Source of the DNA: an uncultured virus (IMG/VR IMGVR_UViG_3300008107_000013)
Taxonomy: Duplodnaviria > Heunggongvirae > Uroviricota > Caudoviricetes
DNA: 64,000 nt
IMG/VR virus record: IMGVR_UViG_3300008107_000013
Strand: one strand, 5' to 3'
The translations under genes and the position numbers were made by a program. Position 1 is the stretch's first letter. Each line of letters begins with the position of its first letter. The notes under the pieces are model-generated. The model did no database searches. It worked only from the letters and a program-made list of their open reading frames with translations, and was not told the DNA's origin. This document shows, piece by piece, positions 4,005 to 63,856 of this stretch.

Positions 4005-4167
4005 CCTTACACTTGAATACTGTGTCCTGCTTGTCTTTCATATCGGCATTCGAATTCAAATAAAATTGATGTCTTGCCTTCAATGAGTACGAGCAATCTC
4101 TAACGTTCTCGTACTTGTTTACCGGGATTTCTACTCCATTCAAAGCCATTATCAATAACCAACTCAT
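3973..4167 (-). CDS. small hypothetical protein
   Basis: 64 aa, ATGA-coupled, hydrophobic N-terminus and two Cys. Confidence 0.5.
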   Translation of the reverse strand: MSWLLIMALNGVEIPVNKYENVRDCSYSLKARHQFYLNSNADMKDKQDTVFKCKAIERLPSSSH

Positions 4168-4529
4168 CGTCTCATCCTTGCAATATCTATAGCGTCGTCA
4201 CCCTGGAACACTGGTATTAGATTAGATTTATGAAGGGTGCCAATGCCTATTATCTTAGTACCAGTATACGTATTGGATTCTTTCTTTACCGCGACCGTTA
4301 CAGAGTCGGGCTTAGATGGAATGGAAGTAGTAAGCCGATGAGAATTAAGAGAAAGACGATCCGTCTGAGGTAAAGCGGCCGGGGTTTCAGGCAAGCGCTT
4401 ACCAGTGAAGAAACGTTTAGTATTAGAATAGCTAGCCTCATCCATAGATCGCTGCAAAGACAGCTTCTCTTTTTGCTTTTTCTTTTGCCTGCTTGTCTTC
4501 TTCGACCTTTCGTGCACTATCAGAAACAT
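4164..4529 (-). CDS. conserved T4-like hypothetical protein
   Basis: C-terminal YTGTKIIGIGTLHKSNLIPVF...DIARMRR motif recalled from T4-like phages. Confidence 0.7.
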   Translation of the reverse strand: MFLIVHERSKKTSRQKKKQKEKLSLQRSMDEASYSNTKRFFTGKRLPETPAALPQTDRLSLNSHRLTTSIPSKPDSVTVAVKKESNTYTGTKIIGIGTLHKSNLIPVFQGDDAIDIARMRR

Positions 4530-6091: not shown

Positions 6092-6234
6092 GAAGTACCT
6101 GACTAAAATGCTTGGGTATTACTGCTTAGAACTCACAGAGCTCCGTGGTTTTGCCGCCTCTCCAATTGCTCTATACGGGGAATATATGGCAAAAAGCCAC
6201 ATATTCACCCAGTAATCAAACCATTGCTCTATCA

Positions 6235-6777
6235 TTACTCGTCACTATCGGGACGAGGAGGGCGGCCAAGTCCTACTGGCGGAGGCGGATCTCCAAAAGA
6301 GGCTCCAGGAGGAGGAGGTAATGGTCCTCTAGGACCAGGAGCAGAAGGAGCTCCGAATGAAGGAGCGGGAGGAGCACCAAAAGCAGGGCTAGCACCAAAA
6401 GACGATACAGGAGAAGGTCTTCCTAGAGGTGACGGACTAGAGGGGGAAGGAGTAGAAGGTCTTGTAGCTGCTTCTATTGCTTTCATCTTTGCTTCTTTAT
6501 CATCCTTACCTGCAAGCATGATACCAGATAATGTTCCAGTTAAAAATGTAGCAATAGGAATGATTAACTCAAAGAACTTCTGATCAATAGGAGAGATAGC
6601 GTTGAGAGGCTGGGTTACGAATATGATAGAATAAAGAACAACAAACACAATACCAGTAAGAGTTAATGCCAGGCAGATTCCGATGAAGAATCTAAGACGA
6701 GCCATGAGTTGGTCTTCGGTATAGATGAAAGGATCCTCTCCTTCTTTCTCTTTAAAAAATTTATGGTTCATTTGCAT
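6235..6777 (-). CDS. two-TM membrane protein with Pro/Ser/Gly-rich C-terminal tail
   Basis: Hydrophobic helices FFIGICLAL...IIFV and LIIPIATFLTGTLSGIML, then a low-complexity tail. Confidence 0.75.
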   Translation of the reverse strand: MQMNHKFFKEKEGEDPFIYTEDQLMARLRFFIGICLALTLTGIVFVVLYSIIFVTQPLNAISPIDQKFFELIIPIATFLTGTLSGIMLAGKDDKEAKMKAIEAATRPSTPSPSSPSPLGRPSPVSSFGASPAFGAPPAPSFGAPSAPGPRGPLPPPPGASFGDPPPPVGLGRPPRPDSDE

Positions 6778-7046
6778 GCTGCCCCCGATTTAGATAATTG
6801 TGAAGTCATAGATGGAGTGGTTGGTGCTTTGTCATCAGGAGGACCTAGTCTAGGATCTCTCCCTCCTTTAAATATATGTTCTGGACACGTTCTAGTTACA
6901 TCGCAGAGAGGCTTTTGGCATTCTTGTTTATCCCAGTTAGCTGGATCTTGACATGAGTATCTAAATCGATCTCCTCCAAATACTGCCAGCAATAATGGAA
7001 CAAATATTAATAGTGCAAGCCACTTAAACAGTCTTCTATCGTTCAC
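6768..7046 (-). CDS. small exported Cys-rich protein
   Basis: N-terminal hydrophobic helix then DRFRYSCQDPANW...C...C....C. Confidence 0.7.
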   Translation of the reverse strand: MNDRRLFKWLALLIFVPLLLAVFGGDRFRYSCQDPANWDKQECQKPLCDVTRTCPEHIFKGGRDPRLGPPDDKAPTTPSMTSQLSKSGAACK

Positions 7047-7065
7047 TCTTCACCTCTCTGTGTAA

Positions 7066-7539
7066 TTACCTTCCAGATAATGGATTATCCATTGCTTTCT
7101 GAATCTTATTATCTATCTCTTTTCGTAATTCTCGAACGTCCTTTTCAGTTTCACGTTGGCTTTGCTTAGCTCCTCGTTCCACTTGCTCAACCACATTTTC
7201 CAACCTTCTGATGTCGTTTTTAAGATCGTTCTTAATGTCGCGGGTGTAGTCTGTAGTTTTAGCAGAATTCTCTTCTATAACAGCCAATCGCTTATCAAAC
7301 TCCGAAAGGTCAGGAGCAACATAGGTTGCTATTTTTTTCTGCATATCCTGATAAGATTTATATACTTCAAATGCTCCATATAGCGAGCCAAGCACAGAAG
7401 AAACTATACCAGCAGCAATCATTAGCTTGGCAGGAGTAAATTCATATCCTCCAATACTAATCACTGTGTCTTTACTAGCATACTTCTTTGCTGCTGCTTC
7501 CAGCTCTTCTACTTTTTTGTCTATATTTTTGTCTGACAT
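7066..7539 (-). CDS. single-TM coiled-coil protein
   Basis: TM LMIAAGIVSSVLGSLYGAF, long heptad region, ends AMDNPL. Confidence 0.75.
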   Translation of the reverse strand: MSDKNIDKKVEELEAAAKKYASKDTVISIGGYEFTPAKLMIAAGIVSSVLGSLYGAFEVYKSYQDMQKKIATYVAPDLSEFDKRLAVIEENSAKTTDYTRDIKNDLKNDIRRLENVVEQVERGAKQSQRETEKDVRELRKEIDNKIQKAMDNPLSGR

Positions 7540-7540
7540 T

Positions 7541-7648
7541 TTACTTCCTTATTTCTTGTTTAGTTATTTGATTATACTGATGTTCCAACCAAAGACCAAA
7601 AAAACTAATAATAAGGCATGTTGCTGCAAACCAGTGGGCAGGTCTCAT
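7541..7648 (-). CDS. small TM peptide (35 aa, not in ORF track)
   Basis: MRPAHWFAATCLIISFFGLWLEHQYNQITKQEIRK; ATGA-coupled, fills the operon gap. Confidence 0.5.
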   Translation of the reverse strand: MRPAHWFAATCLIISFFGLWLEHQYNQITKQEIRK

Positions 7649-8082
7649 ATTTTGTAGACCTTAAACAAATAAATTACTATAGAAACTATTCCTAATATCC
7701 ACCAAAAAAGATCATTGACCTTGTCTTTATCTTTTTGTATGAGTTTCATTTCCTCTTCATTTGATTTATTAATTTCTTGTTTTAGTTGTTGAACTCTTTG
7801 CCAAGCTTCTTTTCCGTATTTGTTAATTACATCTTTCTCCATTTTTTGGAGCATTTCTTTTCGTTCTTGTTCTTCTTGAAACTTTTCAAACGCTTGAATT
7901 TCTGCATTTATATACATTCTTTCTTTTTGTCTCTTTTCATACTCTCTTTTTTTCTGAGCTTGCTTTACCGCTTCGTTGTTATCTGATTGTATATCAGTAA
8001 CAATTTTTGCAGTATCTTTACCAATTTTTTGAGCTTCCTTTAACGTATTTAAATTTTTGGAAACTTCATTTAAATCGCTCAT
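7645..8082 (-). CDS. coiled-coil protein with C-terminal TM anchor
   Basis: Charged helical body, C-terminal LFWWILGIVSIVIYLF. Confidence 0.7.
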   Translation of the reverse strand: MSDLNEVSKNLNTLKEAQKIGKDTAKIVTDIQSDNNEAVKQAQKKREYEKRQKERMYINAEIQAFEKFQEEQERKEMLQKMEKDVINKYGKEAWQRVQQLKQEINKSNEEEMKLIQKDKDKVNDLFWWILGIVSIVIYLFKVYKI

Positions 8083-8288
8083 TTGTTTTGTCTTTCCAAT
8101 TCTTTAGCAACTGCTCTCATTTTAATAAGGTCAGAAGCACTCGGTCCTTTTTTAGATTGAACGTTTCCATCGTCTTCAGAAATATTATCTTGTTTTGCTT
8201 CTCGCAATATGTTGACCGCAATTGCTCCTAGAATTAAAATCTCTATGAGATAAAATACCATAAACGACTCAAACAATGTACTTGTCAT
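8079..8288 (-). CDS. small N-terminal TM protein (start reassigned to 8288)
   Basis: MTSTLFESFMVFYLIEILILGAIAVNIL; ATGA overlap with upstream stop. Confidence 0.6.
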   Translation of the reverse strand: MTSTLFESFMVFYLIEILILGAIAVNILREAKQDNISEDDGNVQSKKGPSASDLIKMRAVAKELERQNK

Positions 8289-8554
8289 CTCTTTGTCATC
8301 CAGGTTGATATTCCAACATATGTACCAACTACCCCACCCAAAGCAATCCAATACAAATCAAGCATGTCTTTAATCTTTTCTAATCTTGATTCAGGTACAA
8401 AGAACATTAAAGCAAACGCTGAAGCAATCATAGCAACTAACGAAAGCCAGGCCATTCTCCTTCGATTAACTGCTTTACGTTCGTATTGCGCTTCTTCTTT
8501 AGAAGATACTTTTCCATCCTTGTTTAGATCTATTTCATTATTTGTATTGTCCAT
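8285..8554 (-). CDS. EF-hand-motif two-TM protein, holin-like
   Basis: DLNKDGKVSSKEE loop, basic RRR, two TM helices. Confidence 0.65.
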   Translation of the reverse strand: MDNTNNEIDLNKDGKVSSKEEAQYERKAVNRRRMAWLSLVAMIASAFALMFFVPESRLEKIKDMLDLYWIALGGVVGTYVGISTWMTKR

Positions 8555-10130
8555 CTACCATCTCCTGATGTAATCTATCTGCTGCTCCAAAAAGTCTTCT
8601 CCCAGCTTGTCTATTATCTATTACATCTTTACCATATTGTTTTTTTATTTGTTTTTCAAGAATGTCCGGGATGTTAGATTGAGCATAGGAAGAAAATCCT
8701 GGCACAAAACTCATTGCACTGATAACATTTGCTTGAACTGCTACTTGTCCTTCAAAAGAAGTGGCTTGTTCAGCTTTTCTCATTTCTTCTTTCGCTTTCT
8801 TTTCACTTGCTAACTTTACTTCGGAACCAAGTTTACCTTCATTAGAACTAGATTTGGATTCTGCTCTTTCACTTCTTTCTGTTCTGGTTGTTCTTTGAGC
8901 TGATTGCTGAGATTGTGATTGGGATGCTGAGGGTTTTGCTTCACTTTTTTCTGTTGTTTGTTGGGGCGAGGCAATTGCTTGGATTCCAGCATTTTGAGTT
9001 CCTGAGGGTGTTAACTTTACCGCAGCAGTTGTATCACTTGGAGAGGCTGAAGTAGTCTTTGTTTCTATTACGCTATCAACGGCACTATCTCCAGTTTTTG
9101 AAACTGTTGTTTGAACTGCACCGTCTGTTTTTATAGATGTTGTCGGCTCTGTTTTTGAAACTACGGTAGAAGATGTTGTGTTAGTGCTAGATGAAGAATT
9201 TAAAATATTTTGTCTAGCATACGCGGAAGAATAGCCTGGACACTCTTGAGAGTAAAGAGGATTATCAGAACATTGTTGAGTTAAAAGTGCTTGATCGTAA
9301 CCTGAGCACGATTTATCATAGAGAGGATTTAAAGAGCACTGTTGAACAAGAAATGCTGCTTGATAGCCTGGACATATCTGAGAAGATAGCGGGTTAATGT
9401 TACATTGAGCTAAAGTATAACCTGGGCAAGAAGGATCAAACAATGGATTTATCGAACATTGTTGGGTTTGATAAGCTGCTGCATAGCCTGGGCACGAGGG
9501 ACTAGATAGAGGATTAGATTGGCAAAGGTCCTGGGTGTATTCTAACATTATAGATGGCATTCTAACTTGAGGGCCATAATACCCTGCCCAGAATTTAGCA
9601 TCTTTTCCTGTAAATTTTAACTCTAAATCTGTTACACTAGACAAAGGATAATCTTGAGGGAACCATTGAGTACCGGAATAGTTAATAAATCCCATTCCTA
9701 TCATCTGAGGATAATTAGAGGTGTAAGACTGTAAGATTGCGCCTGATGTATCTCTTAGAGAAACAGTACTTGATAATGTTCCATATTGACCAGATGATGA
9801 GTCGTTATTAATATTCCATGAATACGAGTACCCTCCAATTTTTAATCCGGTTCCTGCGGTTGCAAGCGCAGCATTAATTCCTATAGTTTGAGTTGCAGAT
9901 GCAACAGTATATCCAAAAATAATAGTATTAGTTCCTGGATTAAAAGCAGGTGTTGTTCCTCCTGCAAATCCTCCATTCTGCCCGGCAACAGTTCCTGTCC
10001 ATGCGTTTACGGTAGGAGATAGGAGGTTTTGAGATTGAGTATACGTAGCGTAAGGGTCTGGCTGAGACCCGACAACCTGGGCATATGATACGTTACTCAA
10101 AAACAAGAGAAACAACAGATACTTTTTCAA
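8538..10130 (-). CDS. secreted protein with five C-x2-NPL-x4-C-[PS]GY repeats and Ser/Thr-rich linker
   Basis: Signal peptide MKKYLLFLLFLSNVSYA; repeats visible in translation; TTG start overlapping upstream TGA. Confidence 0.75.
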   Translation of the reverse strand: MKKYLLFLLFLSNVSYAQVVGSQPDPYATYTQSQNLLSPTVNAWTGTVAGQNGGFAGGTTPAFNPGTNTIIFGYTVASATQTIGINAALATAGTGLKIGGYSYSWNINNDSSSGQYGTLSSTVSLRDTSGAILQSYTSNYPQMIGMGFINYSGTQWFPQDYPLSSVTDLELKFTGKDAKFWAGYYGPQVRMPSIMLEYTQDLCQSNPLSSPSCPGYAAAYQTQQCSINPLFDPSCPGYTLAQCNINPLSSQICPGYQAAFLVQQCSLNPLYDKSCSGYDQALLTQQCSDNPLYSQECPGYSSAYARQNILNSSSSTNTTSSTVVSKTEPTTSIKTDGAVQTTVSKTGDSAVDSVIETKTTSASPSDTTAAVKLTPSGTQNAGIQAIASPQQTTEKSEAKPSASQSQSQQSAQRTTRTERSERAESKSSSNEGKLGSEVKLASEKKAKEEMRKAEQATSFEGQVAVQANVISAMSFVPGFSSYAQSNIPDILEKQIKKQYGKDVIDNRQAGRRLFGAADRLHQEMVDGQYK

Positions 10131-10702
10131 TTGCAGCCCAATCTAGCCTTTACAATTGGATCGTCCCCGGCAAAGTCTTTGCAAAGAAATTCATCTTTCT
10201 TCTCTGCTTGTTTCTTAGACTCTACTCTAGGAGGATTGACACCGTACGCACCAATATTTGCTTTATCAGCTTTGTTTACTACTCCTCGCTTTTCCCACTC
10301 GTCTTTTGCATCCTGTCCAATCTTTCCCTCTACTGGGCAGGGTGTTCCCGCAGCAATCATAGCGGTAAAAATTCTCTCGTCTTGACATAGAGTAGCAACT
10401 GCAGCTACTTTCATGCCCATGTCGTATAAATTTTTAGCTAATTTAATTCTTTCACAATTCATATCTCTCATAGTACCGCCCATAGAGATGCCTAGAATTT
10501 GTGTTTGAACGGCTCCAGAAGCAGCAACAGCACACACATCGTTGTTAATGGTAGTGATGGATGGAGCTACAGCGGTTGGAGGGGGGCTTTCAACTTTTGT
10601 TTCGGATGAACTTCTCGAAGTCGAATCAGTGACAACTGTTTGAGCAGTTGCAGATGATGAAAACATAACAAAAAGCAGCACACTTGCTAGCTTTTTGTAC
10701 AT
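10127..10702 (-). CDS. secreted Cys-containing phage protein of unknown function
   Basis: Signal peptide ending SATA; PPPTAVAP, DMNCERIKL, KVAAVATLCQD and AGTPCP motifs. Confidence 0.8.
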   Translation of the reverse strand: MYKKLASVLLFVMFSSSATAQTVVTDSTSRSSSETKVESPPPTAVAPSITTINNDVCAVAASGAVQTQILGISMGGTMRDMNCERIKLAKNLYDMGMKVAAVATLCQDERIFTAMIAAGTPCPVEGKIGQDAKDEWEKRGVVNKADKANIGAYGVNPPRVESKKQAEKKDEFLCKDFAGDDPIVKARLGCN

Positions 10703-10732
10703 TTTTTTATTTCCTTTTTTTGGTTGTTACAA

Positions 10733-11005
10733 CTACTTCTTATTTATAAGGCGTCTGTCATCAGCCTGTATCCAATAGGTAATAAACATATTGGCATCCA
10801 TCTCAGAACTGAAAAACCCTGTTTGAACTTCTCCGGTCTCGGCATGAGTCATTACTACGAGGATGGAGTCAAATGTTGATGATGAAGCTTTAATGATCCA
10901 ATTTTCAATCTTAATAGGATCAACAGAAAGTATTTCTAGGCCAGGATAACGATCAGATGTTATTGACTTCAAAGAGCGATAAAACTTATCGAAGTCTTCG
11001 TGCAT
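10733..11005 (-). CDS. hypothetical protein
   Basis: 90 aa ORF, TAATG-coupled. Confidence 0.65.
   Translation of the reverse strand: MHEDFDKFYRSLKSITSDRYPGLEILSVDPIKIENWIIKASSSTFDSILVVMTHAETGEVQTGFFSSEMDANMFITYWIQADDRRLINKK
10741..10748 (-). promoter_or_regulatory. T4-type late promoter TATAAATA
   Basis: Exact gp55 consensus ~40 bp upstream of the start at 10702. Confidence 0.7.
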
Positions 11006-11592
11006 TAATCACTTCCAAATGTTTCAACGTAACGGGCATATAAGCCTATTTCTCTCCCGTACGCTTCAATCTCCCAAGGCTGGTCCCAATAATCAACCTT
11101 GTTTTCATCTATGTGAGAGGATTGCCATCTGGCTTTTCTCTTTGATACAAACCCATCATTAAGCTCCCCAAGTGCAAACTGTTTCATATGGACAACTTCA
11201 TGGGCTAAGTATTTTAGTAACTCTTCTTTTGACATCTTCTTATATAATTCTATTTCAAACTCTTTGTACTGGCCATCTCGTTCAACATATGAACAATAAC
11301 CCATTGCGTCATCAGCAAGCTTGGGCATAAGTCTAATGTTAAGAGAGATGTTCTTACAGATTCGTCTTGGGAGCAAAAGGGATGCATAATACTCAGCAGC
11401 AATTGCAAGCTCGTCTTTGAGCTTGGATGAACGATGTCCAACAACCGATACATCCATCAAGTTACCGATAGAGTAACGATAGTTGAACGTCTTAGTAAAT
11501 ACTAATTCACCCTTCTTTCTCATACGCTTTTTTGATCCCCTCCCAGAGATCGTAAGGCCCGTGGAATAAGGCAGATAGTAAGTGAAATGCAT
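11005..11592 (-). CDS. HEXXH zinc metallopeptidase-like protein (start uncertain)
   Basis: LAHEVVHMKQ and YWDQPWEIEAY motifs. Confidence 0.75.
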   Translation of the reverse strand: MHFTYYLPYSTGLTISGRGSKKRMRKKGELVFTKTFNYRYSIGNLMDVSVVGHRSSKLKDELAIAAEYYASLLLPRRICKNISLNIRLMPKLADDAMGYCSYVERDGQYKEFEIELYKKMSKEELLKYLAHEVVHMKQFALGELNDGFVSKRKARWQSSHIDENKVDYWDQPWEIEAYGREIGLYARYVETFGSD

Positions 11593-19035: not shown

Positions 19036-19500
19036 TTAGGCAATTAATCCAGGCTTGTAAACAACTTTACCGTTCTCTCTCATTGCTGTGAGAGTCTGAC
19101 ATTTTAGATCAGCCGGGTTGTAAGATACGTGAACCCATCCAGAGTCAGGTACCCCGGGGGTATAGAATTCTAGGATTACTTGAGTATACCAAAAATTCTC
19201 TGAAATGTATTTTGCTAGGTCGTAATTTGCTACTCCGGGAATCTCAATATCAGCTGCTTGACCTCGACAATGATCAGAGGTTCTAGATCCTCCTACGGCA
19301 GCATTAACATTAGGATGTCTAAAGCCAGAATTAACTTTAATTCCTCTTCCGTAAGCTGTTCTTAGCGGCTGGAGAATGTTTTCGCAAAGTATTCTTAAAT
19401 TCTCAATCTCAGCATCTCCTGGAGTATTGTCTAGACCGTTTCTGAGAGCGGTCTCACTTTTAACTAATTCCGCAAGGGAAAAATTTTCTGTTAGTTGCAT
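19036..19500 (-). CDS. peptidase M15A endolysin
   Basis: NFSLAEL, NSGFR, SDHCRGQAADI and WVHVS Zn motifs. Confidence 0.9.
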   Translation of the reverse strand: MQLTENFSLAELVKSETALRNGLDNTPGDAEIENLRILCENILQPLRTAYGRGIKVNSGFRHPNVNAAVGGSRTSDHCRGQAADIEIPGVANYDLAKYISENFWYTQVILEFYTPGVPDSGWVHVSYNPADLKCQTLTAMRENGKVVYKPGLIA

Positions 19501-27381: not shown

Positions 27382-28075
27382 TTTAATAGTTTATCCCATG
27401 GTATGTCTGTCGAATAAGGTATCGGATCTTTTAGTTTAGCTTTACTAAAGTTAGCAATACGCTCACTGCAAGAAGGACACTTACCGCAACTTCTGCCTGA
27501 AGAATCAGGATTATAGCAAGTAAGAGTAAAATCCAGTCTAACATTTCCAATCTCCTTTGCAATTTCTAACTCTTCGTACCAAACTTCTGCGTTGTATCCC
27601 AGTATCCGTATTCATCGTGTACTTGCAACCCGGTAAAGACATACGGTGCATTATGTGACTCAGCAAACGAAAATGCCAATGCATTTAATATCATATTACG
27701 AAACGGAACATAAGTCTTAGGTTGAGGGTCACCAAGAACTTCTTTTATTGTTGGCATATTAACGTTTGTACCAGATATATTAGCGGAGATAGGCTTGGCA
27801 ATCTCTCCTAAAATACCTAAGTCAAGTACATGATGTTGAATGCAAAGATACTCACAAGTTTTTTTAGCTAATTCTAATTCGCGCTTTTGCTTTTGACCAT
27901 AATCAAACGAGAGAGCAATCACTCGACTATACTTACCATCAGGTCGATGTCCGTACTTTGCATTTAAGATATAGGTCATAATAGTACTATCCAGACCTCC
28001 AGATAGTACCGATACTACATTCTGATTATACTCAATACTTGGTAGATTACTAACAGCCTTGTCCAGGGTCATCAT
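27378..28075 (-). pseudogene. queC: 7-cyano-7-deazaguanine synthase QueC, split by an internal deletion and frameshift near 27578
   Basis: N-part has SGGLDS, FDYGQ and TYVPFRN and stops at 27566; C-part 27378..27578 in the -1 frame has TCY...CGKCPSCSER Zn motif; the linking segment is missing. Confidence 0.85.
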
Positions 28076-28262
28076 GTCTTTCCTTTTGTACTTTATGTAC
28101 ATACACAACAGCATCCATAAGTTCTTCTTTTAGATGCTGTAACCATTGATCGAAGTTTAAATCATTACGCTCCGTAGTAACACCATATTTTTTAAAGCCA
28201 TGTAAAGAGCGATCTACAAACTCTCCACATATTTCATTTACATTGTTATCAGGTGATTTCAT
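28050..28262 (-). CDS. MazG-like nucleotide pyrophosphohydrolase
   Basis: KKYG and HLKEELMDAVVY (EExxD) all-alpha motif. Confidence 0.65.
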   Translation of the reverse strand: MKSPDNNVNEICGEFVDRSLHGFKKYGVTTERNDLNFDQWLQHLKEELMDAVVYVHKVQKERHDDPGQGC

Positions 28263-29188
28263 TGTCTTGGTGTCTTAGTAGAAGGTACTGCTGGGTTAAT
28301 AATAGAATGATCATAAAGTAGGTTCATAGAAGAAGCACGTACGGGGTTAATATCAATACCCCCTCTTCGAGTATATAAACATCCTACTAATAGCTCTTCT
28401 GGTTCAAGTAAGTCCCAGAGTCGTTTGTAGATACATTCGCAAATTTCTTCGTGAAAATGATTCTCTTTTCTCATTGAGATAATATATTGCAGAAGCGACT
28501 CATCTGTAACTCCTTTCTTACCCTTTACATGAATATACACATCACCCCAATCGGGTTGATTAGTAACACGACAGTTCGAACGTAAGGAATGTGAGCGTCG
28601 TTTAACAGCGTATTGCTCTTTTGTTGGAATAACTTCTAGAATATCAGCCGATTCGTTGTAACGATCAAATGAGATGTTTTCTACATCACAATAAAACTCT
28701 AGAGAAATAAAATCACCATTAAAAGGTCTCACTGTATCGCTAGGGTTAATAAACAAGCAAGCTTCCACTGAGGCCGGGCCCCCAATCGCCTTTTGTAAAT
28801 CATCTTCAATCATTCTTTCAATCTTGTATATCTCATCATGCGTATCAATTAAGCGAGCCATATTATAAGAGTTGAGATAAAGCTTAACTGACTTTGATTC
28901 TACAATGTTAGGTGAATGACTATTATAAACAAATTTTAACCAGCCTGAGATAGGATAGCCATTTTTAAGAAGCGTAGAAAACTCATATGAGTTCCAGCTA
29001 TCTCTTCCTACAAACGGCAACTTTTCACCATCTAACCCGTAAGCTGTTCGATTAAGCTGTCTTGGTACGGCTACTAACAGCGTTGGATCTACATTGTCAG
29101 GTGTTACGTATGGTTTAACAACCGTCCCGTCTCCCGCCTTACCCAGGTGTACTGAAACTAGTTTATTAAGTTCTTCTTGATTATCCAT
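28259..29188 (-). CDS. queF: NADPH-dependent preQ0 reductase (bimodular QueF)
   Basis: ESKSVKLYLNS QueF motif, LRSNCRVTNQPDWG catalytic Cys/Asp, FHEEICE and YTRRGGIDINP. Confidence 0.95.
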   Translation of the reverse strand: MDNQEELNKLVSVHLGKAGDGTVVKPYVTPDNVDPTLLVAVPRQLNRTAYGLDGEKLPFVGRDSWNSYEFSTLLKNGYPISGWLKFVYNSHSPNIVESKSVKLYLNSYNMARLIDTHDEIYKIERMIEDDLQKAIGGPASVEACLFINPSDTVRPFNGDFISLEFYCDVENISFDRYNESADILEVIPTKEQYAVKRRSHSLRSNCRVTNQPDWGDVYIHVKGKKGVTDESLLQYIISMRKENHFHEEICECIYKRLWDLLEPEELLVGCLYTRRGGIDINPVRASSMNLLYDHSIINPAVPSTKTPRQ

Positions 29189-29741
29189 TATGATTTGTCC
29201 TCTTTTCTAACTCCGTATTGTAGATGTCTAGAATAAATTGAGTGCGCTGTCTTACCGATCCATTTACAAATAAAAAGTTAATGTTATGCCCACTCATAAC
29301 ATCGTTAAAAATTTGTACGATGTCATCTCTAAATTCTGTATCAGTACTTCTAGTGCCGTCGTCCACAATGTCAAACTCCGGCACAATATAAAATAAAAGA
29401 TCGTACAGTTGTACGGTCTTATTAAAAATTCTATATGCGAGATCTAATATTTCCTGACTTACCTTACCTTTATTTCTCAAATACTTTGTATATACCAGTC
29501 CGTCAAGAGAAGTTCTATCCGTAATCATATTGTCATGCATGAAGAGATTTACTATATGCTCTTGCATGATTAGTCTTTGAGTCACGTCACTCCCGTGCTC
29601 ATTAATTAGTAAGCCATAACTTTTTACTCTACGTGTTACTTCATCACAAATAGAGTAATCTTTAAATATTGGTTCTGATCTTAATGCATTAAGTAAAGTA
29701 GTTTTACCTACAGACTGTGCTCCGCTAATCCCAATTCTCAT
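29181..29741 (-). CDS. P-loop nucleotide-monophosphate-kinase-like protein
   Basis: GAQSVGKTT, DRTSLD and DDGTR motifs. Confidence 0.8.
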   Translation of the reverse strand: MRIGISGAQSVGKTTLLNALRSEPIFKDYSICDEVTRRVKSYGLLINEHGSDVTQRLIMQEHIVNLFMHDNMITDRTSLDGLVYTKYLRNKGKVSQEILDLAYRIFNKTVQLYDLLFYIVPEFDIVDDGTRSTDTEFRDDIVQIFNDVMSGHNINFLFVNGSVRQRTQFILDIYNTELEKRTNHNG

Positions 29742-30285
29742 TTAACATTAACCTTGTATTTAAAAAGTCTACCCATAATTCTATAGACCTTTCCTTCAAT
29801 TTGCCAATCAGACTGTCCAGTGTTTCATTTTCTTCAATCAGGCAAGCATGAAGGCGCATAATTTCTCCCTCATCTACCTCCGGTGTTACTCTGTGTATAA
29901 CCGTACCTGTGGTAGGTAGTTTAAGCTCTAATGCTTTCTTTTGCGGGTCTTTACCCTTAAGTATAGGATAAGTTCTAATGTCTCCTGGATGGCCGTTATA
30001 TACTTCAAACTTCTCGCAGATGTCAGCCGGAAGAATTCTTAGATACCCATGTAGTGTAATAAGCCACTTCCCGTTATACTCCTCTCTTAGGAAGTCCATA
30101 ATTATATCATGCTTCCATTTTACGATGTTAAAATTATTAACCGAGGTATGAAAGGTAGACTCGTTTAAATTGTTAGTAAAAACGATTGAGGGTTGGTATC
30201 CCAGTCGTTCACAAATGCCTACTAACTCGGAGCCAGATTGGCTGAACATAGCAATCCAGCCCTTTTTAACAGGTAAACTATCCAT
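29725..30285 (-). CDS. dpdN: PurN-like formyltransferase, probable preQ1 formyltransferase (start reassigned to 30285)
   Basis: FSQSGSE, LHGYLRIL, NGHPG and TGTVIHRVTPEVDEG motifs; lies between dpdA and queF. Confidence 0.75.
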   Translation of the reverse strand: MDSLPVKKGWIAMFSQSGSELVGICERLGYQPSIVFTNNLNESTFHTSVNNFNIVKWKHDIIMDFLREEYNGKWLITLHGYLRILPADICEKFEVYNGHPGDIRTYPILKGKDPQKKALELKLPTTGTVIHRVTPEVDEGEIMRLHACLIEENETLDSLIGKLKERSIELWVDFLNTRLMLNENWD

Positions 30286-31066
30286 TACAGATAGCTCTGA
30301 AACATTCAATATTGTAGAGGACTTTTTCAAGAGTTCCATCATCCACCTCTTGGTTAATCATAGTAAATAATTTTTGTGAAGGTTTATCTTCCAAACCGTC
30401 TTCACCTTTGTATCGCATTCCCTTTAAGCCCGCAACGACGGGGTTTGAAGTATCGATAGAATCGAGCCAGGTAAAATCACGGTATGAGGAAAATTCTTGC
30501 GGGAGGCCACATCCGAGGAGGTGATGAGGTTTCTGTGTGTTGATAATCCCGGTATGGAGTAGATGGTGTAAAAGTGCGTCCCGTCCGTACATGTAATGAT
30601 GATACACTGTCGGGAGTTTTCCATTTACATTTTCGTCCACAAAGAATGAATAATCAAATGAGAATGCAACCTTATCTACTCGAGGTTCTACTTCCTCATA
30701 ACACCAAATAATATCCTCTAAGCTCTTACCTTGAACTACTCCTATAGTTTTACACCCAGCAACAGGCTCCCAGTTAAGTAAGCGTGCTACTGTTCCTTCT
30801 GCATCTTCCAATACATCAGGAATAATATAATAATCAGGCATTAACTTCTCAATCCAGCCACGATACTTTTCTGAATCAAATGCCTCGCCAAGTTCAAAGA
30901 TAGAGTTATCAAGAATAATCTCTCGACCCTTTTCTTTTGCTCGTTTAAACTTAGCCCAATACTCTTCACTCTCCTCAAACAAATGCACTAAAGCATAATC
31001 GTAATCAGTAACTTCTTGTACGTGATTAAAAATAGAAAGAGGTGCTTCGTGTGCAATTTTAGCCAT
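30278..31066 (-). CDS. dpdA: TGT-fold 7-deazaguanine transglycosylase, DpdA3-like (start reassigned to 31066)
   Basis: ILDNSIFE, IPDV, GVVQG, HHLLG and SIDTSNP motifs inside a que cluster. Confidence 0.8.
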   Translation of the reverse strand: MAKIAHEAPLSIFNHVQEVTDYDYALVHLFEESEEYWAKFKRAKEKGREIILDNSIFELGEAFDSEKYRGWIEKLMPDYYIIPDVLEDAEGTVARLLNWEPVAGCKTIGVVQGKSLEDIIWCYEEVEPRVDKVAFSFDYSFFVDENVNGKLPTVYHHYMYGRDALLHHLLHTGIINTQKPHHLLGCGLPQEFSSYRDFTWLDSIDTSNPVVAGLKGMRYKGEDGLEDKPSQKLFTMINQEVDDGTLEKVLYNIECFRAICNG

Positions 31067-31445
31067 TAAGATTATACTCCTGTTGGGCGTGCGCTCGATC
31101 ACGCTCTCGTTTTTGATAGTACTTCGTCCCTAGAAATTCCATACGCGTAATAATTTCGTTTACTTGAGGTTGTTCTAGCTTTACAATTTCGGTCACACCA
31201 CTAATCTTTTCCTCTAACCAGAAGTTCTTTGGGTAGAAAGCTTTAAATGCTTCTTCTACTCCTTTCATTTCTTCTAGAGGTCCGGCTATCGTTTTCATTA
31301 TTTTAATGTCCCAACTTTCATACTGCTCGGGAGAATGTTTAAAACGATCTAATGCATCCCACGAACCAGTATGTCCGAATTTATAAAAGACCTCTTTGGT
31401 CTTCTTATCTGTAAACCTGGCAAAATACATCTTACCTATGTTCAT
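31059..31445 (-). CDS. GIY-YIG/T5orf172-like putative nuclease
   Basis: MYF...FYKFGHT...RF...E...G.TE pattern. Confidence 0.5.
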   Translation of the reverse strand: MNIGKMYFARFTDKKTKEVFYKFGHTGSWDALDRFKHSPEQYESWDIKIMKTIAGPLEEMKGVEEAFKAFYPKNFWLEEKISGVTEIVKLEQPQVNEIITRMEFLGTKYYQKRERDRAHAQQEYNLNG

Positions 31446-31735
31446 AACACCATCCTTAAAAGTCCTACTGTATCAATTGTGGTAAGTAGTAAATAGTTTG
31501 CTAGAAGGCCAAAAGACCTTCTCGTCCAGGAAGCCCATGCATATAATGCACAACCGGCAATCCAAACAGGATAGAGAGCGAGTAATGGAGGATTGGGTAC
31601 AGTAAGAGCCATAGTGATACTACAGCCAATACTAATAGCCCAGGCCAGGACCTCAATAGCAAAGCGTAACCGATTCGACTTAAAGTCGTCCTTAATCCAG
31701 TCAAAGATTCCACCAATAACCCCTTCATTCATCAA
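31442..31735 (-). CDS. small three-TM membrane protein
   Basis: 97 aa, three hydrophobic helices. Confidence 0.7.
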   Translation of the reverse strand: MMNEGVIGGIFDWIKDDFKSNRLRFAIEVLAWAISIGCSITMALTVPNPPLLALYPVWIAGCALYAWASWTRRSFGLLANYLLLTTIDTVGLLRMVL

Positions 31736-31998
31736 ACCCCCTTACCTTCACCTGCTAAAAAGTAGTTAGTTACTTTTTGCATCATAACAGTTTTACTTTG
31801 AGTGCGACTAAGTTCGTCCTTGAAGCGGAGTTTAGTAGCGTCTTTTCCACTTGACTGATTAATAACATTGATGCATTGCTCTCTAAACGTTTCTACTGAC
31901 GCAATTGGAAAAAGAGCAAAGAGTTGGGTCATCGTCTCACTACCAATTCCATCTTCTTTAACACGATTACGAGAGTTAGTCTGAGTATTAAGTTGCAT
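31732..31998 (-). CDS. hypothetical protein
   Basis: 88 aa, AGGAG SD, own promoter. Confidence 0.7.
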   Translation of the reverse strand: MQLNTQTNSRNRVKEDGIGSETMTQLFALFPIASVETFREQCINVINQSSGKDATKLRFKDELSRTQSKTVMMQKVTNYFLAGEGKGV

Positions 31999-32023
31999 TA
32001 CGGTCTCCTAAGTTAACATCTAT

Positions 32024-32052
32024 ATTATAATATAACTTAGAAATTATATCAA
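32024..32052 (-). promoter_or_regulatory. sigma70-type early promoter TTGATA-N17-TATAAT inside the modification cluster
   Basis: GTTGATATAATTTC motif, 17-bp spacer. Confidence 0.75.
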
Positions 32053-32072
32053 CCCTACAACTTGCTCCGGTA

Positions 32073-32765
32073 TTACAGCTTCTCCCCATACGTCTGCTGT
32101 AGTGCTATGTTATCGAAGAACTCTTTCTTTACTGACGCGTCATGAAACTGTCCGTGTAGAACGGTTGTTTGAGTTAGAGAGGATTGTGCCATAATACCTC
32201 TATTTTCACAACAGCCATGCTTTGCAGCAATATAGACAGCTACGTCCTGTGATTCAGTTGCATCCATAATTGACTTGGCAATCTGATTACACAGTTCCTC
32301 CTGAAGAGTTCCTCTCCTAGCATGCCACTGCGCAATACGGGTGTACTTGGATAACCCAATTACTTTATTACTAGGAATAATTCCAATGTACGCAACCCCT
32401 CTTACCGGCTGATGATGGTGTGAACAAAGAGATTTTAACTCTGACCGTACCACAAGCATGCCCGAGTACCTATCATCACTATCGTTAGGAAATGCGGTAG
32501 AATCGGGTGCAGGGTCATATCGCCCGGCCATAATTTCGTTGTAGTACATTTTAGCTAGTCGACGAGCAGTCCCTTTAGAATTAGGATCAGTCTCTCGATC
32601 AATTAAAAGCGCATCTAATACCTTTTCAAATGCTTCCGTAGCTTCATCTATTAAATGTATCTTAGATGCCTCTACGACATACTCACTAACATTATCTCCG
32701 GCCCAAAAGCGCTTACCATCCGACCTCATTCGTTCTCTAAGTACTTGCGATAAATTTTTTTCCAT
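32073..32765 (-). CDS. folE: GTP cyclohydrolase I
   Basis: SLCSHHHQP, IGLSK, RRGTLQEEL and HGCCENRG motifs. Confidence 0.95.
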   Translation of the reverse strand: MEKNLSQVLRERMRSDGKRFWAGDNVSEYVVEASKIHLIDEATEAFEKVLDALLIDRETDPNSKGTARRLAKMYYNEIMAGRYDPAPDSTAFPNDSDDRYSGMLVVRSELKSLCSHHHQPVRGVAYIGIIPSNKVIGLSKYTRIAQWHARRGTLQEELCNQIAKSIMDATESQDVAVYIAAKHGCCENRGIMAQSSLTQTTVLHGQFHDASVKKEFFDNIALQQTYGEKL

Positions 32766-32767
32766 TA

Positions 32768-32959
32768 TTAAAGTTCCTCAAGCTTTTTTTTGTAATGCTC
32801 AATTTGATCTTTCAATTCTAGTTTTTTCTTTTTTAACATCCTTACATGTATGTCATCATCGTATTGACGGTAGTTAACTTCTATTTGCTTATCAACTGCT
32901 TGATGTAAATCTTCTAGATGCATAATAAACTCTTCCATTTCACGTTTTGTCATAATCAT
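32768..32959 (-). CDS. DUF465/YdcH-like coiled-coil protein
   Basis: H..VDKQI...LKKKKLELKDQI pattern. Confidence 0.65.
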   Translation of the reverse strand: MIMTKREMEEFIMHLEDLHQAVDKQIEVNYRQYDDDIHVRMLKKKKLELKDQIEHYKKKLEEL

Positions 32960-33469
32960 CTACAGCCCCTCAAATAAATTCTCTTCCCACTCTCTATGAC
33001 CTTCTCTAAAAGCCATATTAGCTTGCGTTTCTCTAACTTCTACTCTAAAGCACCAAAGCCGACTTGCTTCTCCCGGGCCCCAGTAATCAGGTACATAAAC
33101 GCCATTAATATACTTGTACAACATATCGGCTAGCCCTTCACACCCTAACCTTGGTAGAACAGTAAGTTTAGCTAACTTAAGTCTTTCAAGTTCGTGAAAT
33201 TTTTCAATTAATGGATCATCTTGAGCAACTAGTAAGGTATGATCGAATTGATCTTGCAACACTTCTTTCAACTCTTTAAACCCGCCATAGTCAGCAACCC
33301 AGTTACGAAAATCTAGATCGTTACTTCCGAACCAAAACTTCATAGAAAAAGCATAACCATGAATGAGGTTGCAATGTGAGTCAGCTCTCCACTGACGATA
33401 TGCAACTGGAAATGCATCAACATACTCTTTAGTTGAAACGTACTTGTATGTTACAGGCTGTAAACTCAT
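32960..33469 (-). CDS. queD: 6-carboxytetrahydropterin synthase (start reassigned to 33469)
   Basis: CNLIHGY, DYG, FDHTLL and VEVRET motifs; ATGA coupling. Confidence 0.9.
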   Translation of the reverse strand: MSLQPVTYKYVSTKEYVDAFPVAYRQWRADSHCNLIHGYAFSMKFWFGSNDLDFRNWVADYGGFKELKEVLQDQFDHTLLVAQDDPLIEKFHELERLKLAKLTVLPRLGCEGLADMLYKYINGVYVPDYWGPGEASRLWCFRVEVRETQANMAFREGHREWEENLFEGL

Positions 33470-33909
33470 TTTTTCTCCCACCAAAAATCTATCCATTGAG
33501 GTACATCTTCTCTACTAAGTTCCCATCCAAAATAGGTAGGGGTAAAATTTCTTGCATTAGTGTTGTTATGGATCAAGGTAGCGGTGTGCACTTCTTTATA
33601 TACCTTAGTAATATCATCTAACGATACTCCTGTATCGCAAATATCGTCAACCACTAAAATTTTCTGTTTTCTTTCAATAGCTAGATGTATGACAGAATTT
33701 TCCTTGTCTCTTATTTTAGAAACGTTGCTAGACCAATTTAATGCTACAAACACTGTATCAAATATATTTGATAGATGAACGGCAGGGGTTAGACCCCCCC
33801 TTACAACTCCTACAATTACATCGTAATGAACGTTTGCTTTTTCAATAGCATAAACTATAGAAGATAGATCATCCATATAGTTCTTAAAATTATAATCTAT
33901 ATTTTTCAT
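33466..33909 (-). CDS. type I purine phosphoribosyltransferase (Gpt-like)
   Basis: GVVRGGL, ILVVDDICDTG PRPP loop and WIDFWWE C-terminus; TAATG coupling to queE. Confidence 0.9.
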   Translation of the reverse strand: MKNIDYNFKNYMDDLSSIVYAIEKANVHYDVIVGVVRGGLTPAVHLSNIFDTVFVALNWSSNVSKIRDKENSVIHLAIERKQKILVVDDICDTGVSLDDITKVYKEVHTATLIHNNTNARNFTPTYFGWELSREDVPQWIDFWWEKK

Positions 33910-40200: not shown

Positions 40201-41665
40201 TATGCTTACCTATGTTTATAGTGTGTATTTTATACTTAAACTTTTCTTCATTGTAATAATTCATTCTTTCGGCAAAATGAAGAAGGGTGTAATTCTTTTT
40301 TGACTTCCAACTTAAATCATCGGCTAAATCGTAAAGGGTGGCAAACGTTTTGAATTCCCCTTTTCTAAGACCGCGCCCTATAGATTGAAGTGTGCGAATT
40401 CTTGACTTAGATGGGCTTGCAAAAATAATGTTGTGTAAATTCTTAATATTTATACCTGTACTAAAAGTACCATAAGAAGCAACTATTATAGCAGTTTTTT
40501 CATCTTCTACTGCATGTCTAATGTCTTCCCTTTCCTCACCTTTTACTAACCCATCAACATAAAAGACTTTATCATGTTCGCACGTAGCTTTAATATCGGA
40601 GAACAAGGTCTCTCCTTGTTCTATTGTCTTAAATAGTATCAGAGTGTTGCCTTTGAGAGATAAGGAGAGATTGCGGATAAATTGGTTCCTATCTATGTTT
40701 TTAGCTAGAAACGCTGCTTCAGATTGATAATCAGCATCTTTCATTAGCTTTCTGCTAGCTTCGTCATAATTAAGAACAATAGCATTAATTTTTAGATCTG
40801 ACACATCTTTGTTTTCAATCAACTCTGCGGTTGATATAACTTTCATTACTGGGCCAAAAAGCCCTTCCAGAACAAGTTTATTAGTTTGTGATCCATCTAA
40901 CGTACCTGTTAATCCAAATTTAAATGGGCAATCAACTAGCTTGGTCATAATAGATGTTAGACTTTTAGCTTTAAATAGGTGCGCTTCATCACCTATAACG
41001 CAGTTAAATTGTTCGAACCATTTTCGCGGTAGCTGATAAATTGATTGCCAAGTAGTAACTACGAAAGGTGCGTCTGTTATTTTTTCTTGACCGGAAAATA
41101 TTTTATGTACAAGACCCTCTTTCAATCCGTATGATTCAAAATCAGAGCACATTTGATGAACAAGTGAGGTAGTTGGTACTACTATTAGTACCTTTCGATT
41201 GTCAGATGCCTGTAGTTTAACAAACCTACAAAGTAAATAGATTATTAATGATTTACCTGAAGCAGTAGGTGATACTAAAAGTGCTCTTTGCTTTCTAACG
41301 GCAAACGTAAAGGCATTTAATTGATAGTCTTTAGGAGTAAGAGTGAGAGTTTTTAACTTCTTTGCAAACTCATCAGACTCTTTCAATGACCAAGGCCAGT
41401 CACTGAAGTCTTCCGGTGTATCATATTTTATTTCGTACCCACGTTCTTTTGCAAACTCAATTGTTTGTTCAATTAAACCTCTATACATTAATCTTGTTGC
41501 AGAAGAAAATAATCTTATCTTACCATCCCACATTCGCCTTTTAAATTGAGGGGAGAAACGAGCTCCAGGAACGTCAAACGTAAACCTATCGGCAAGCTCT
41601 TGAGCTATCGATGGTTCGCAGTATACGCGGTTGTATACGTCGTTGAGTTTCTCAATTGTGATCAT
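40184..41665 (-). CDS. uvsW: SF2 helicase UvsW
   Basis: PTASGKS, DEAH, TGT and QSIGRGLR motifs. Confidence 0.96.
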   Translation of the reverse strand: MITIEKLNDVYNRVYCEPSIAQELADRFTFDVPGARFSPQFKRRMWDGKIRLFSSATRLMYRGLIEQTIEFAKERGYEIKYDTPEDFSDWPWSLKESDEFAKKLKTLTLTPKDYQLNAFTFAVRKQRALLVSPTASGKSLIIYLLCRFVKLQASDNRKVLIVVPTTSLVHQMCSDFESYGLKEGLVHKIFSGQEKITDAPFVVTTWQSIYQLPRKWFEQFNCVIGDEAHLFKAKSLTSIMTKLVDCPFKFGLTGTLDGSQTNKLVLEGLFGPVMKVISTAELIENKDVSDLKINAIVLNYDEASRKLMKDADYQSEAAFLAKNIDRNQFIRNLSLSLKGNTLILFKTIEQGETLFSDIKATCEHDKVFYVDGLVKGEEREDIRHAVEDEKTAIIVASYGTFSTGINIKNLHNIIFASPSKSRIRTLQSIGRGLRKGEFKTFATLYDLADDLSWKSKKNYTLLHFAERMNYYNEEKFKYKIHTINIGKHIDINN

Positions 41666-60611: not shown

Positions 60612-60616
60612 TTAAA

Positions 60617-63856
<3,240 letters not shown>

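Follow-up and report, generated by a model that had tools for sequence, protein, structure and literature searches.

A linked gene trio in a putative late operon of exported and membrane proteins from a T4-like freshwater phage: a tentative assignment to the envelope at lysis

Here, we describe an operon of nine genes, g1 to g9 (positions 6235-10702, minus strand), in a stretch of 64,000 nucleotides (nt) from an uncultured virus (IMG/VR record IMGVR_UViG_3300008107_000013); this whole stretch is referred to as "the window". Judged from sequence comparisons, the operon is a mosaic with three components: (i) a linked trio, g1, g2 and g7, encoding proteins that we call A, B and C; (ii) a pair of lysis-cassette genes, g8 and g9; and (iii) four exchangeable genes for membrane proteins, g3 to g6. 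We propose that the operon encodes late envelope and lysis-stage machinery, in which g9 would be holin-like and the trio would span the periplasm. We put the probability of this reading at about 0.45. Here, we set out the evidence for the mosaic structure and for the association with lysis genes, and weigh the proposal against other explanations.

The trio emerges from a comparison of related loci, i.e., the best 80 of at least 600 viral-contig matches to g1, of which 78 are distinct. Because the closest relatives of g1 were taken (53–99% identity in g1), these loci are mostly T4-like. Where at least 1.5 kilobases (kb) of downstream sequence are available, g2 follows g1 in 57/57 loci; where at least 4.5 kb are available, g7 follows g1 in 41/41, with the same strand and order throughout. 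The genes g8 and g9 each occur in 18/40 loci and are always paired. The other genes are sporadic, with g3 present in 1, g4 in 6, g5 in 5 and g6 in 2 of 41 loci, and g5 lies between A and B in some of them. The original prediction for this DNA treated the nine products as one multi-subunit envelope complex. That view is not supported, since only g1–g2–g7 are invariably linked and g8–g9 travel with an endolysin gene elsewhere. The expectation that the genes co-occur in other phages holds for the trio and for the g8–g9 pair, and only sporadically for g3–g6.

The surroundings of the trio vary. The two genes upstream of the operon are kept in 5/73 and 2/73 related loci, and neighbours elsewhere include a primase-like gene with a SegE-type endonuclease gene, a polymerase gene with a gene for 100 amino acids (aa), and a helicase gene with a SprT-like gene. 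Since the flanking genes differ between loci, the trio appears to move as a mobile cassette. In many T4-like loci, a gene for a SegE-type GIY-YIG homing endonuclease (PF19835, 2.3e-32) lies one gene upstream of the module; the carriers include L012, L014, L016 and L018-L020 (L numbers denote individual loci), which fits the variable insertion sites of the module. In the window, the gene directly upstream of the operon (11005-11592, minus strand) is SprT-like and metalloprotease-type, with an HExxH motif (Pfam E 0.0078; phrog_10499, 1.5e-26). A homologue precedes g1 in 5/73 related loci, and the phage record ctXG6705 has a SprT-like gene (Pfam 5.2e-8) between its g2-like gene and its holin gene. 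Matches in the prokaryote genome collection comprise 22 contigs, all of them, judged by title, from metagenome bins of inconsistent taxa, and we read these as phage contigs.

The nine open reading frames (ORFs) are tightly packed, as originally predicted, with most junctions overlapping. The overlaps are 4 nt for g1/g2, 17 nt for g2/g3, 4 nt each for g3/g4, g4/g5 and g5/g6, and 10 nt for g8/g9; spacers of 1 nt and 19 nt separate g6 from g7 and g7 from g8, respectively. The value for g3/g4 assumes a revised start of g4, the overlap being 67 nt with the longest ORF. The exact late-promoter motif claimed upstream of the operon is also present: TATAAATA, by which a T4-type late unit is recognized, lies at 10741..10748 on the minus strand and precedes the g1 ATG by 38 nt. 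Counting both strands, the window holds six copies of TATAAATA, compared with 6.8 expected by chance, and all six are on the coding strand. Five of the six sit 18-42 nt before gene starts, namely those of g1, the Gp23 capsid gene, the scaffold gene, the tail-sheath gene and an unassigned 247-aa gene (54661-55404) beside a neck gene. The sixth copy (40447-40454, minus strand) lies within the UvsW helicase gene and not in an intergenic spacer. It is therefore the position of the motif, and not its count, that speaks for a role as late promoter. Of 70 distinct related loci, 15 have an exact copy between −160 and +90 of the start of the g1 homologue; the frequency expected from background is 0.0086 per 250 nt. 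The operon is thus best described as a probable single late transcription unit of a T4-like freshwater phage.

The identity of the window as a T4-like myophage comes from Pfam. Its substantial ORFs are all on the minus strand, and they include genes for replication and recombination (DnaB-type helicase, UvsX/RecA, family B polymerase, clamp, clamp loader, RegA, UvsW and UvsY) and for the virion (Gp23 capsid, scaffold, prohead protease, Gp20 portal, sheath, tube, terminase and neck proteins). The operon DNA is matched by freshwater and lake metagenome runs, with up to 0.96 of sampled words found; no RNA run is among the sequencing runs that match it. Four DNA runs from lake metagenomes contain the operon with its conserved cores. 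In four lake-metagenome runs, summed contig depth has maxima at 6434-6600, the membrane core of g9, and at 10275-10608, the core of g1. Precisely these conserved parts are common to many further phage populations of the samples.

None of the nine proteins has a hit above threshold in Pfam (E<=0.1), NCBIfam or PADLOC, and the ESM Atlas returned only unnamed viral clusters for the operon proteins. The PHROGs matches are to function-unknown families only: phrog_20531 for g1, phrog_27150 for g3 (7.7e-13) and phrog_25359 for g9 (1e-15). PADLOC gave weak coiled-coil noise for g7 (E about 1e-3), nothing for the other eight proteins, and no defence or exclusion match. These results agree with the earlier statement that no enzyme or virion motif is recognizable in the operon. 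The families of the trio are nonetheless large: g1 homologues form 7243 clusters at 90% identity (E<=0.001, 7571 candidates) and 1392 representatives at 50% identity, and g2 and g7 have at least 1270 and at least 8000 clusters, respectively. Almost all of these clusters are unnamed, and the few names are generic.

Protein A, encoded by g1 (10127..10702, minus strand; 191 aa), is the hallmark protein of the module. It comprises a signal peptide, a Ser/Thr-rich spacer, a PPPTAxAP stretch, four near-invariant Cys residues and a C-terminal DPIV-x-x-RLG motif. Hydropathy and composition confirm that both A and B, originally described as Cys-rich proteins with signal peptides, have N-terminal signal-like segments, with 6 and 10 Cys residues, respectively. 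An AlphaFold2 model of A reached a pLDDT (predicted local distance difference test score) of 78.8 with an alignment of 97 sequences, and up to 94 in core blocks; it replaced a first model made with 56 sequences (pLDDT 47.8). The model predicts a beta-hairpin (g1 residues 58-79) followed by four or five helices. Hydrophobic residues of the hairpin alternate with Gly, Ser and Ala, such that the hairpin is amphipathic. No match to the model was found in the PDB by Foldseek at E<=0.001, and the best Z among 48,161 chains searched with VIA was 4.0, negatives that are no proof of a new fold. A PDB profile search with the g1 family alignment gave zero matches, and the BFVD matches are uncharacterised family members only, including a marginal one from an Achromobacter phage (E 3.4e-3).

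Protein B, encoded by g2 (8538..10130, minus strand; 530 aa), begins at a TTG codon that overlaps the g1 stop codon and yields an N-terminus resembling those of its homologues. A signal peptide is followed by a beta-rich, lectin-like N-domain, which has W-A-G-Y-Y-G-P at its end, and by five C..NPL....CPGY repeats. A Ser/Thr-rich linker and a short coiled coil then lead to a conserved domain of about 70 aa at the C-terminus. Across the family, the disulfide-type repeats, each of about 20 aa, number from 4 to 12. The N-domain profile matches the sugar-binding domains of FBXO6, FBXO44 and FBXO2 with E values of 3.6e-5 to 3.5e-3, over only about 34 residues that correspond to the C-terminal strand region of those F-box-associated (FBA) domains. 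This is a likeness to lectins of the FBA and carbohydrate-binding module (CBM) types, to be set against the shortness of the match and the fact that 0/41 g2-family members reach a Pfam lectin family. The nearest named Atlas clusters to g2 are DUF642/CBM (score 0.80), which we take as a lead only.

Protein C, encoded by g7 (7066..7539, minus strand; 157 aa), has a conserved N-terminus of about 37 aa, a hydrophobic segment at residues 39-59, a coiled-coil rod and, at the C-terminus, a D-N-P-L motif. This motif and the juxtamembrane N-terminus are near-invariant. We read the N-terminus as cytoplasmic and the rod as periplasmic, a topology deduced and not computed. In 49 loci, the rods fall into length classes of 84-85, 91-92, 95-96, 102-103, 109 and 113-114 residues, with longer classes of 120, 124, 131-132, 135-136, 143 and 146 residues. 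The steps between classes are composed of 7 and 11 residues, and we therefore read the rod as a register-preserving coiled coil. Tandem g7 paralogues, one with a long rod and one with a short rod, occur in eight loci (L011, L013, L016, L059, L060, L062, L065 and L068); where measured, these rods have about 124-135 and 84-85 periplasmic residues. Compensation between the lengths of g2 and g7 was considered and rejected (Spearman 0.07, n=20). The family PF26990 is listed for some g7 homologues.

The module extends beyond T4-like phages. Searches with tblastn found g1 homologues in the Pelagibacter phages Mosig (a myophage), HTVC115P, HTVC023P, HTVC033P, Baldr and HTVC202P, and in the roseophages CRP-810 and CRP-207, two uncultured phages, an environmental fosmid and Ralstonia phage RSP15. 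HTVC202P is siphovirus-like, since it has a tape measure protein and tail protein L. We compared nine aquatic records in particular, i.e., the six Pelagibacter isolates, ctXG6705 and the two roseophages. A large exported protein follows the g1 homologue in the six isolates and ctXG6705; in the roseophages, the large protein after g1 has no clear signal peptide as annotated. With hhalign, the g2-family profile matches the B proteins of the six isolates (podo-type phages, HTVC202P and the myophage Mosig) at 95.5% and E 1.4e-8, via the N-terminal beta-rich domain. The g7-family profile matches the shorter C-type proteins of five Pelagibacter isolates and the two roseophages at 93.9% and E 1.5e-7. 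In 8/9 records, the exception being ctXG6705, a g7-like gene is present within four genes; its product combines an N-terminal transmembrane (TM) segment with a coiled coil and ends in NPL. HTVC115P gp49 is 40% identical to g7; a BLAST comparison of g7 with Mosig_00200 gave E 97, and the families are joined by profile only. CRP-810 gp51 (L005 6210-6632) and CRP-207 gp73 (L087 3292-3873) are labelled lysozyme, and Pfam shows no lysozyme domain in either. The label is probably wrong, these being g7-like anchored coiled coils that end in NPL.

The domain encoded by g1 extends further than the trio. A query with the RSP15 domain retrieved g1-type proteins from Ralstonia phages RSL1 and RsoM2USA, the N4-like Achromobacter phages JWAlpha and JWDelta, and Agrobacterium phage JP1. 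The solitary g1-type proteins share the architecture of g1, including its C-terminal motif. In JWAlpha, the gene lies between N4 gp22-like and gp24-like genes. All named hosts are Gram-negative Proteobacteria.

The association with lysis comes from the neighbours of the trio in these phages. In Mosig, a gene for a PF11351 3TM holin (E 1.6e-5, above the cut-off) is directly upstream of the g1 homologue. In ctXG6705, a homologue of the Mosig holin (E 1e-22) and a Phage_lysozyme protein (3.3e-34) are encoded two and three genes after the g2-like gene. In HTVC023P, a Peptidase_M15 endolysin gene (phrog_894, 4.8e-42) directly follows the g7-like gene. In HTVC033P, the four genes before the g1 homologue encode an Amidase_2 endolysin (phrog_822, 8.8e-55), a phrog_2524 membrane protein, a 78-aa coiled coil and a small exported Cys protein, with a gene for a tail-anchored peptide just upstream of the endolysin gene. 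Thus, a holin or wall hydrolase is encoded within three genes of the trio in 4/9 aquatic records. HTVC033P gp49 showed no significant similarity to the Mosig holin (E 2). In HTVC202P and Baldr, the trio is just before the large terminase gene, which is where lambdoid and T7-like phages keep their lysis genes. In four IMG/VR loci, g7 is followed, directly or within two genes, by a gene for a Peptidase_S11 protein with a signal peptide; a fifth locus has this gene six genes downstream. When 74 proteins of these phages (including 48 of the 61 coding sequences of HTVC202P) were scanned against PHROGs, 0 holin or spanin matches and 3/74 endolysins or amidases were obtained.

The g8–g9 pair has lysis neighbours of its own. 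The product of g8 (6768..7046, minus strand; 92 aa, GTG start) has an N-terminal hydrophobic segment that could be a signal or an anchor, followed by a conserved Cys-rich core (RY-x-CQ-x-P-x-NW ... TCPE). Its Pro-rich tail has a Cys as the last residue, and there are 5 Cys residues in all. Among 19 distinct homologues, two have L-T-G-C, a canonical lipobox, and four have A-[MT]-C; g8 of the window has no lipobox. The product of g9 (6235..6777, minus strand; 180 aa) is a candidate holin-like protein with two hydrophobic segments, flanked by positive charges on the N- and C-terminal sides as in small membrane proteins of the holin type, although at 180 aa it is longer than usual. Its membrane core is almost invariant across 21 sequences, and its C-terminal Pro-rich tail is variable. 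A gene for a GH19 endolysin (phrog_181, 3e-78) adjoins g8–g9 in six related loci, and in two of these (L045 and L074) the pair is also beside Rz1/LysC-like lipoprotein genes. Because g8 and g9 stay with the endolysin gene when apart from the trio, we treat them as a separate lysis-cassette pair. The small Cys-rich exported protein and the two-TM protein with a Pro-rich tail of the original prediction agree with the hydropathy of g8 and g9, as do its two coiled coils of opposite topology with that of g5 and g7, whose hydrophobic segments are C-terminal and N-terminal, respectively. A counterpart of a candidate tenth ORF (6119..6235, minus strand; 38 aa), the ATG of which shares one base with the g9 stop codon, was found in just one further locus (L007, after g9), and the case for a tenth operon member is weak.

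The exchangeable genes encode small membrane proteins. The product of g3 (8285..8554, minus strand; 89 aa) has an N-terminal EF-hand-like loop. EF-hand loops follow the pattern D-x-[DN]-x-[DG]-G-x-[ILV]-x-x-x-E, and the g3 loop fits it by eye. As to the EF-hand of the original designation of g3, the loop reads as a canonical one of 12 residues, but in Pfam EF-hand_5 scores 17.2 bits (E 0.0034) against a cut-off of 25.9. The gene is homologous to roseophage CRP-207 gp72 (E 5e-8), which follows the C-like gene there. Small membrane proteins with the same N-terminal EF-hand-type loop are encoded near the module in the window (8285-8554), in CRP-207 (gp72; L087 3870-4226) and in HTVC023P (gp53; L111 10692-11057). 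By the TM and charge pattern of holins, g3 is a second candidate; g3, g4, g6 and g9 have no match to described holin families (e.g., PF11351). The gene g4 (8079..8288, minus strand) encodes a single-TM peptide of 69 aa. Its longest ORF is 8079-8351, and the internal ATG at 8288 is more likely to be the start than 8351, since it overlaps g3 by ATGA and gives a product similar in length to the homologues (64-76 aa). The product of g5 (7645..8082, minus strand; 145 aa) is a coiled coil with a C-terminal TM anchor, i.e., of the tail-anchored type, and g6 (7541..7648, minus strand) encodes a hydrophobic peptide of 35 aa. No significant similarity links the g5 product to the DUF7201 protein of Mosig (E 0.71).

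We infer the assembly, the localization and the lysis role of the operon products as follows. The nine late products would equip the envelope of the infected cell for the end of infection. A would be secreted to the periplasm as a small disulfide-clamped domain carrying the amphipathic, Gly/Ser/Ala-rich beta-hairpin. B would be secreted as well, with a beta-sandwich of a glycan-binding type, a disulfide-repeat stalk, a flexible linker and the conserved C-terminal domain. C would be anchored in the inner membrane, and its coiled-coil rod, 12-22 nm long if each residue adds about 0.15 nm, would reach into the periplasm. Together, A, B and C may form a complex that spans the periplasm and targets peptidoglycan or the outer membrane at lysis, either in the manner of spanins or as a lysis controller. 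The pair g8–g9, which belongs to the endolysin cassette in sister phages, would provide the likely hole-former (g9) and its periplasmic partner (g8), and g3–g6 would be four exchangeable small membrane proteins. Of the functions listed in the original prediction, the gene neighbourhood favours those at lysis and in the envelope; it does not choose among spanin-like fusion, lysis timing and exclusion.

A bolder version of the proposal, to which we give a small chance, is that A–B–C represent an unrecognised class of lysis-stage envelope breaching, beside the spanins and disruptin, used by many of the most abundant aquatic phages. Disruptin is an envelope disruptor consisting of a single peptide. 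Under this version, the inner-membrane rod C and the peptidoglycan-binding tether B would hold A, a hairpin protein with a new fold, until degradation of the wall frees it to insert into, or destabilise, the outer membrane. The solitary A proteins of other phages would then be the minimal form of the same weapon.

Several observations weigh against a lysis-stage role of the operon. Gene neighbourhood is the sole basis for associating the trio with lysis, and no lysis gene lies within three genes of it in HTVC115P, HTVC202P, Baldr, CRP-810 and CRP-207 (5/9 records). No endolysin gene adjoins the operon in the window either; the only candidate encodes a Peptidase_M15_3 protein about 8 kb away. 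The trio and genes for Rz1/LysC-like lipoproteins occur together in L045 and L074, and further apart in L018, L035, L058 and L068, and the trio is therefore not a simple substitute for spanins. A and the g8 protein of the window have no lipobox, which leaves outer-membrane anchoring unsupported, and the fold of g1 has no match among solved structures. In RSP15, RSL1, JWAlpha and JP1 (4/4), the g1-type gene lies among small early-type genes with no g2- or g7-like neighbours, from which it follows that A can work without the trio, and probably not only at lysis. Lastly, only six named Pelagibacter phages in the GenBank collection carry A, and the module is thus accessory.

Some further observations concern lysis genes in and around the window. 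The Peptidase_M15_3 gene (7.9e-19) is at 19036-19500 on the minus strand, and the same family is found beside the module in HTVC023P and is present in HTVC202P. The Rz1/LysC-like genes of the related loci form cluster 34 (PF23793, 8e-6; phrog_456, 2.4e-9). The window has no homologue of this or the other clusters that neighbour lysis genes in the relatives (clusters 40, 35, 41, 80, 18, 26, 58, 107, 32 and 105). An embedded outer-membrane spanin at 4298-4441, a lipobox ORF inside 4164-4529, was rejected because the host ORF is not membrane- or coiled-coil-like.

Comparison with known systems places the trio close to, and apart from, the two-component spanins, of which lambda Rz/Rz1, T7 gp18.5/18.7 and T4 PseT.3/PseT.2 are examples. 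From its predicted topology, g7 is laid out like an inner-membrane spanin, with a membrane anchor at the N-terminus and a coiled coil in the periplasm. The small exported g8, with Cys and Pro residues, comes next. In relatives, the module is beside holin and endolysin genes, and in two phages it immediately precedes the terminase gene. However, g1, g7 and g8 have no Pfam or PHROG spanin match, the signal peptides of g1 and g2 have no lipobox Cys, and g8 of the window has no Cys after its hydrophobic segment. Moreover, the N-terminus of g7 is long and highly conserved, spanins have no counterpart of the large secreted g1 and g2, and some carriers of the trio have Rz1/LysC-like genes too. For g9, the two TM segments, the charged and Pro-rich tail (probably cytoplasmic) and the adjoining endolysin gene in six related loci resemble class II holins, whereas g9 is in no holin family, is long (180 aa) and has an unusually conserved membrane core. 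A holin of the PF11351 type, the 3TM holin of gene transfer agents (GTAs), sits beside the module in Mosig and ctXG6705, and no PF11351 homologue is among the window ORFs scanned.

A second point of comparison is the curli (type VIII secretion) cluster of pelagimyophages and HTVC023P-type podophages, as described in the parts of PMC7029224 and PMC9599517 drawn on here. Like the operon, that cluster is a set of exported-protein genes in a variable region of SAR11-type phages, is shared by myophages and podophages, and has a debated envelope function; in the part of PMC9004378 consulted, regulation of lysis by curli pores is only speculated. Identity with the curli system was rejected, since no CsgG or CsgF was found among the nine genes (Pfam E<=0.1) or the 81 other window ORFs (E<=1e-5). 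A curlin repeat is likewise absent from the nine genes and the rest of the window. No description of the module was found in searches of the literature on pelagiphage curli, spanins, holins and endolysins, the supplements of which were not inspected and may list the genes as hypothetical. The g1–g2–g7 cluster is thus distinct from the curli cluster, and undescribed.

Other explanations of the operon have to be considered. One is superinfection exclusion or receptor masking, in which A and a glycan-binding B, held by C, would modify or block a component of the envelope, such that injection by other phages is prevented or the loss of progeny on cell debris is avoided. Solitary A genes in the early-type regions of N4-like, Ralstonia and Agrobacterium phages would suit host-takeover or exclusion genes, the module is accessory and moron-like, with its own promoter motif, variable insertion sites and often a neighbouring SegE-type gene, and B carries a lectin-type domain. 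Surface-remodelling roles have also been speculated for other envelope genes of pelagiphages in the parts of PMC7029224 and PMC9599517 seen. We nevertheless consider exclusion unlikely, given that the module is behind a late-promoter motif in the window and in 15/70 relatives, that no PADLOC or exclusion-family match was found, and that the repeated adjacency to holin and endolysin genes would go unexplained. The T4 exclusion genes imm and sp, by comparison, are expressed early. Control of lysis timing is a rather improbable alternative. C would then be a class III holin like T of T4, and A and B would act as a periplasmic antiholin or sensor that delays or triggers it. T4 holin T has the same topology as C, and its periplasmic domain binds the secreted antiholin RI. 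Consistent with such a role, C combines a conserved N-terminus (about 37 aa, presumably cytoplasmic) with a single TM segment and a sizeable periplasmic part, the TM-proximal region being the most conserved; it has secreted partners in a T4-like phage, with probable late expression; and no homologue of T4 t or rI was seen among the window ORFs. However, neither T nor RI has sequence similarity to these proteins, the periplasmic part of C is a ruler-like coiled-coil rod of variable length where a globular domain would be expected, g1 occurs in phages without g7, and there are stronger holin candidates beside endolysin genes, namely g9 and, in relatives, cluster 41.

Surface display or adhesion in the manner of curli is very improbable. 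A would form an outer-membrane portal exposing B to aggregate cells or capture hosts, an idea that draws on the amphipathic hairpin of A, on the adhesin-like build of B (a globular head, a repeat stalk and a low-complexity linker) and on phage-borne secretion modules in pelagiphages, for which the sections of PMC7029224 and PMC9599517 used here provide precedent. Against it, A and B show no similarity to CsgG, CsgF, secretin or portal proteins, the hairpin has a Gly/Ser-rich polar face and frequently a Lys at one of its "lipid-facing" positions, A is found without B in other phages, and late expression leaves little time for a surface phenotype. It is also improbable that the operon has no common function and that unrelated small accessory genes came together by chance in a hypervariable region. 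The sporadic occurrence of g3–g6 and the location of the operon in a variable zone, between the replication genes and the end of the window, fit such a view, but the linkage and order of A–B–C are invariant (57/57, 41/41), g8 and g9 are strictly paired, and all nine products appear to be exported or membrane proteins encoded by tightly overlapping genes behind one promoter motif. Among these explanations, late envelope and lysis-stage machinery is the one that we favour.

Two other regions of the window, both on the minus strand, are of interest in their own right. At 27566-33496, there are genes of the 7-deazaguanine pathway (QueC-like, QueF-like, GTP cyclohydrolase I and PTPS/QueD-like), with genes for a phosphoribosyltransferase and FkbM-type methyltransferases nearby; the gene set suggests modified DNA bases. 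At 56833-63856, two giant late proteins are encoded, one of 1140 aa with five Laminin_G_3 domains and one of 1079 aa with long collagen triple-helix repeats, and these are probably fibres.

Phages of the SAR11 type and their freshwater relatives drive much of bacterial mortality in oceans and lakes, and their lysis genes are largely unidentified. The trio consists of three unannotated families that are always linked and that occur in myo-type, podo-type and siphovirus-type (HTVC202P) phages, one of them with no detectable solved fold. The g1-type domain is a new secreted phage domain that reaches phages of Ralstonia, Achromobacter and Agrobacterium. The trio is thus a concrete candidate for the means by which these phages may treat the host envelope at the end of infection.

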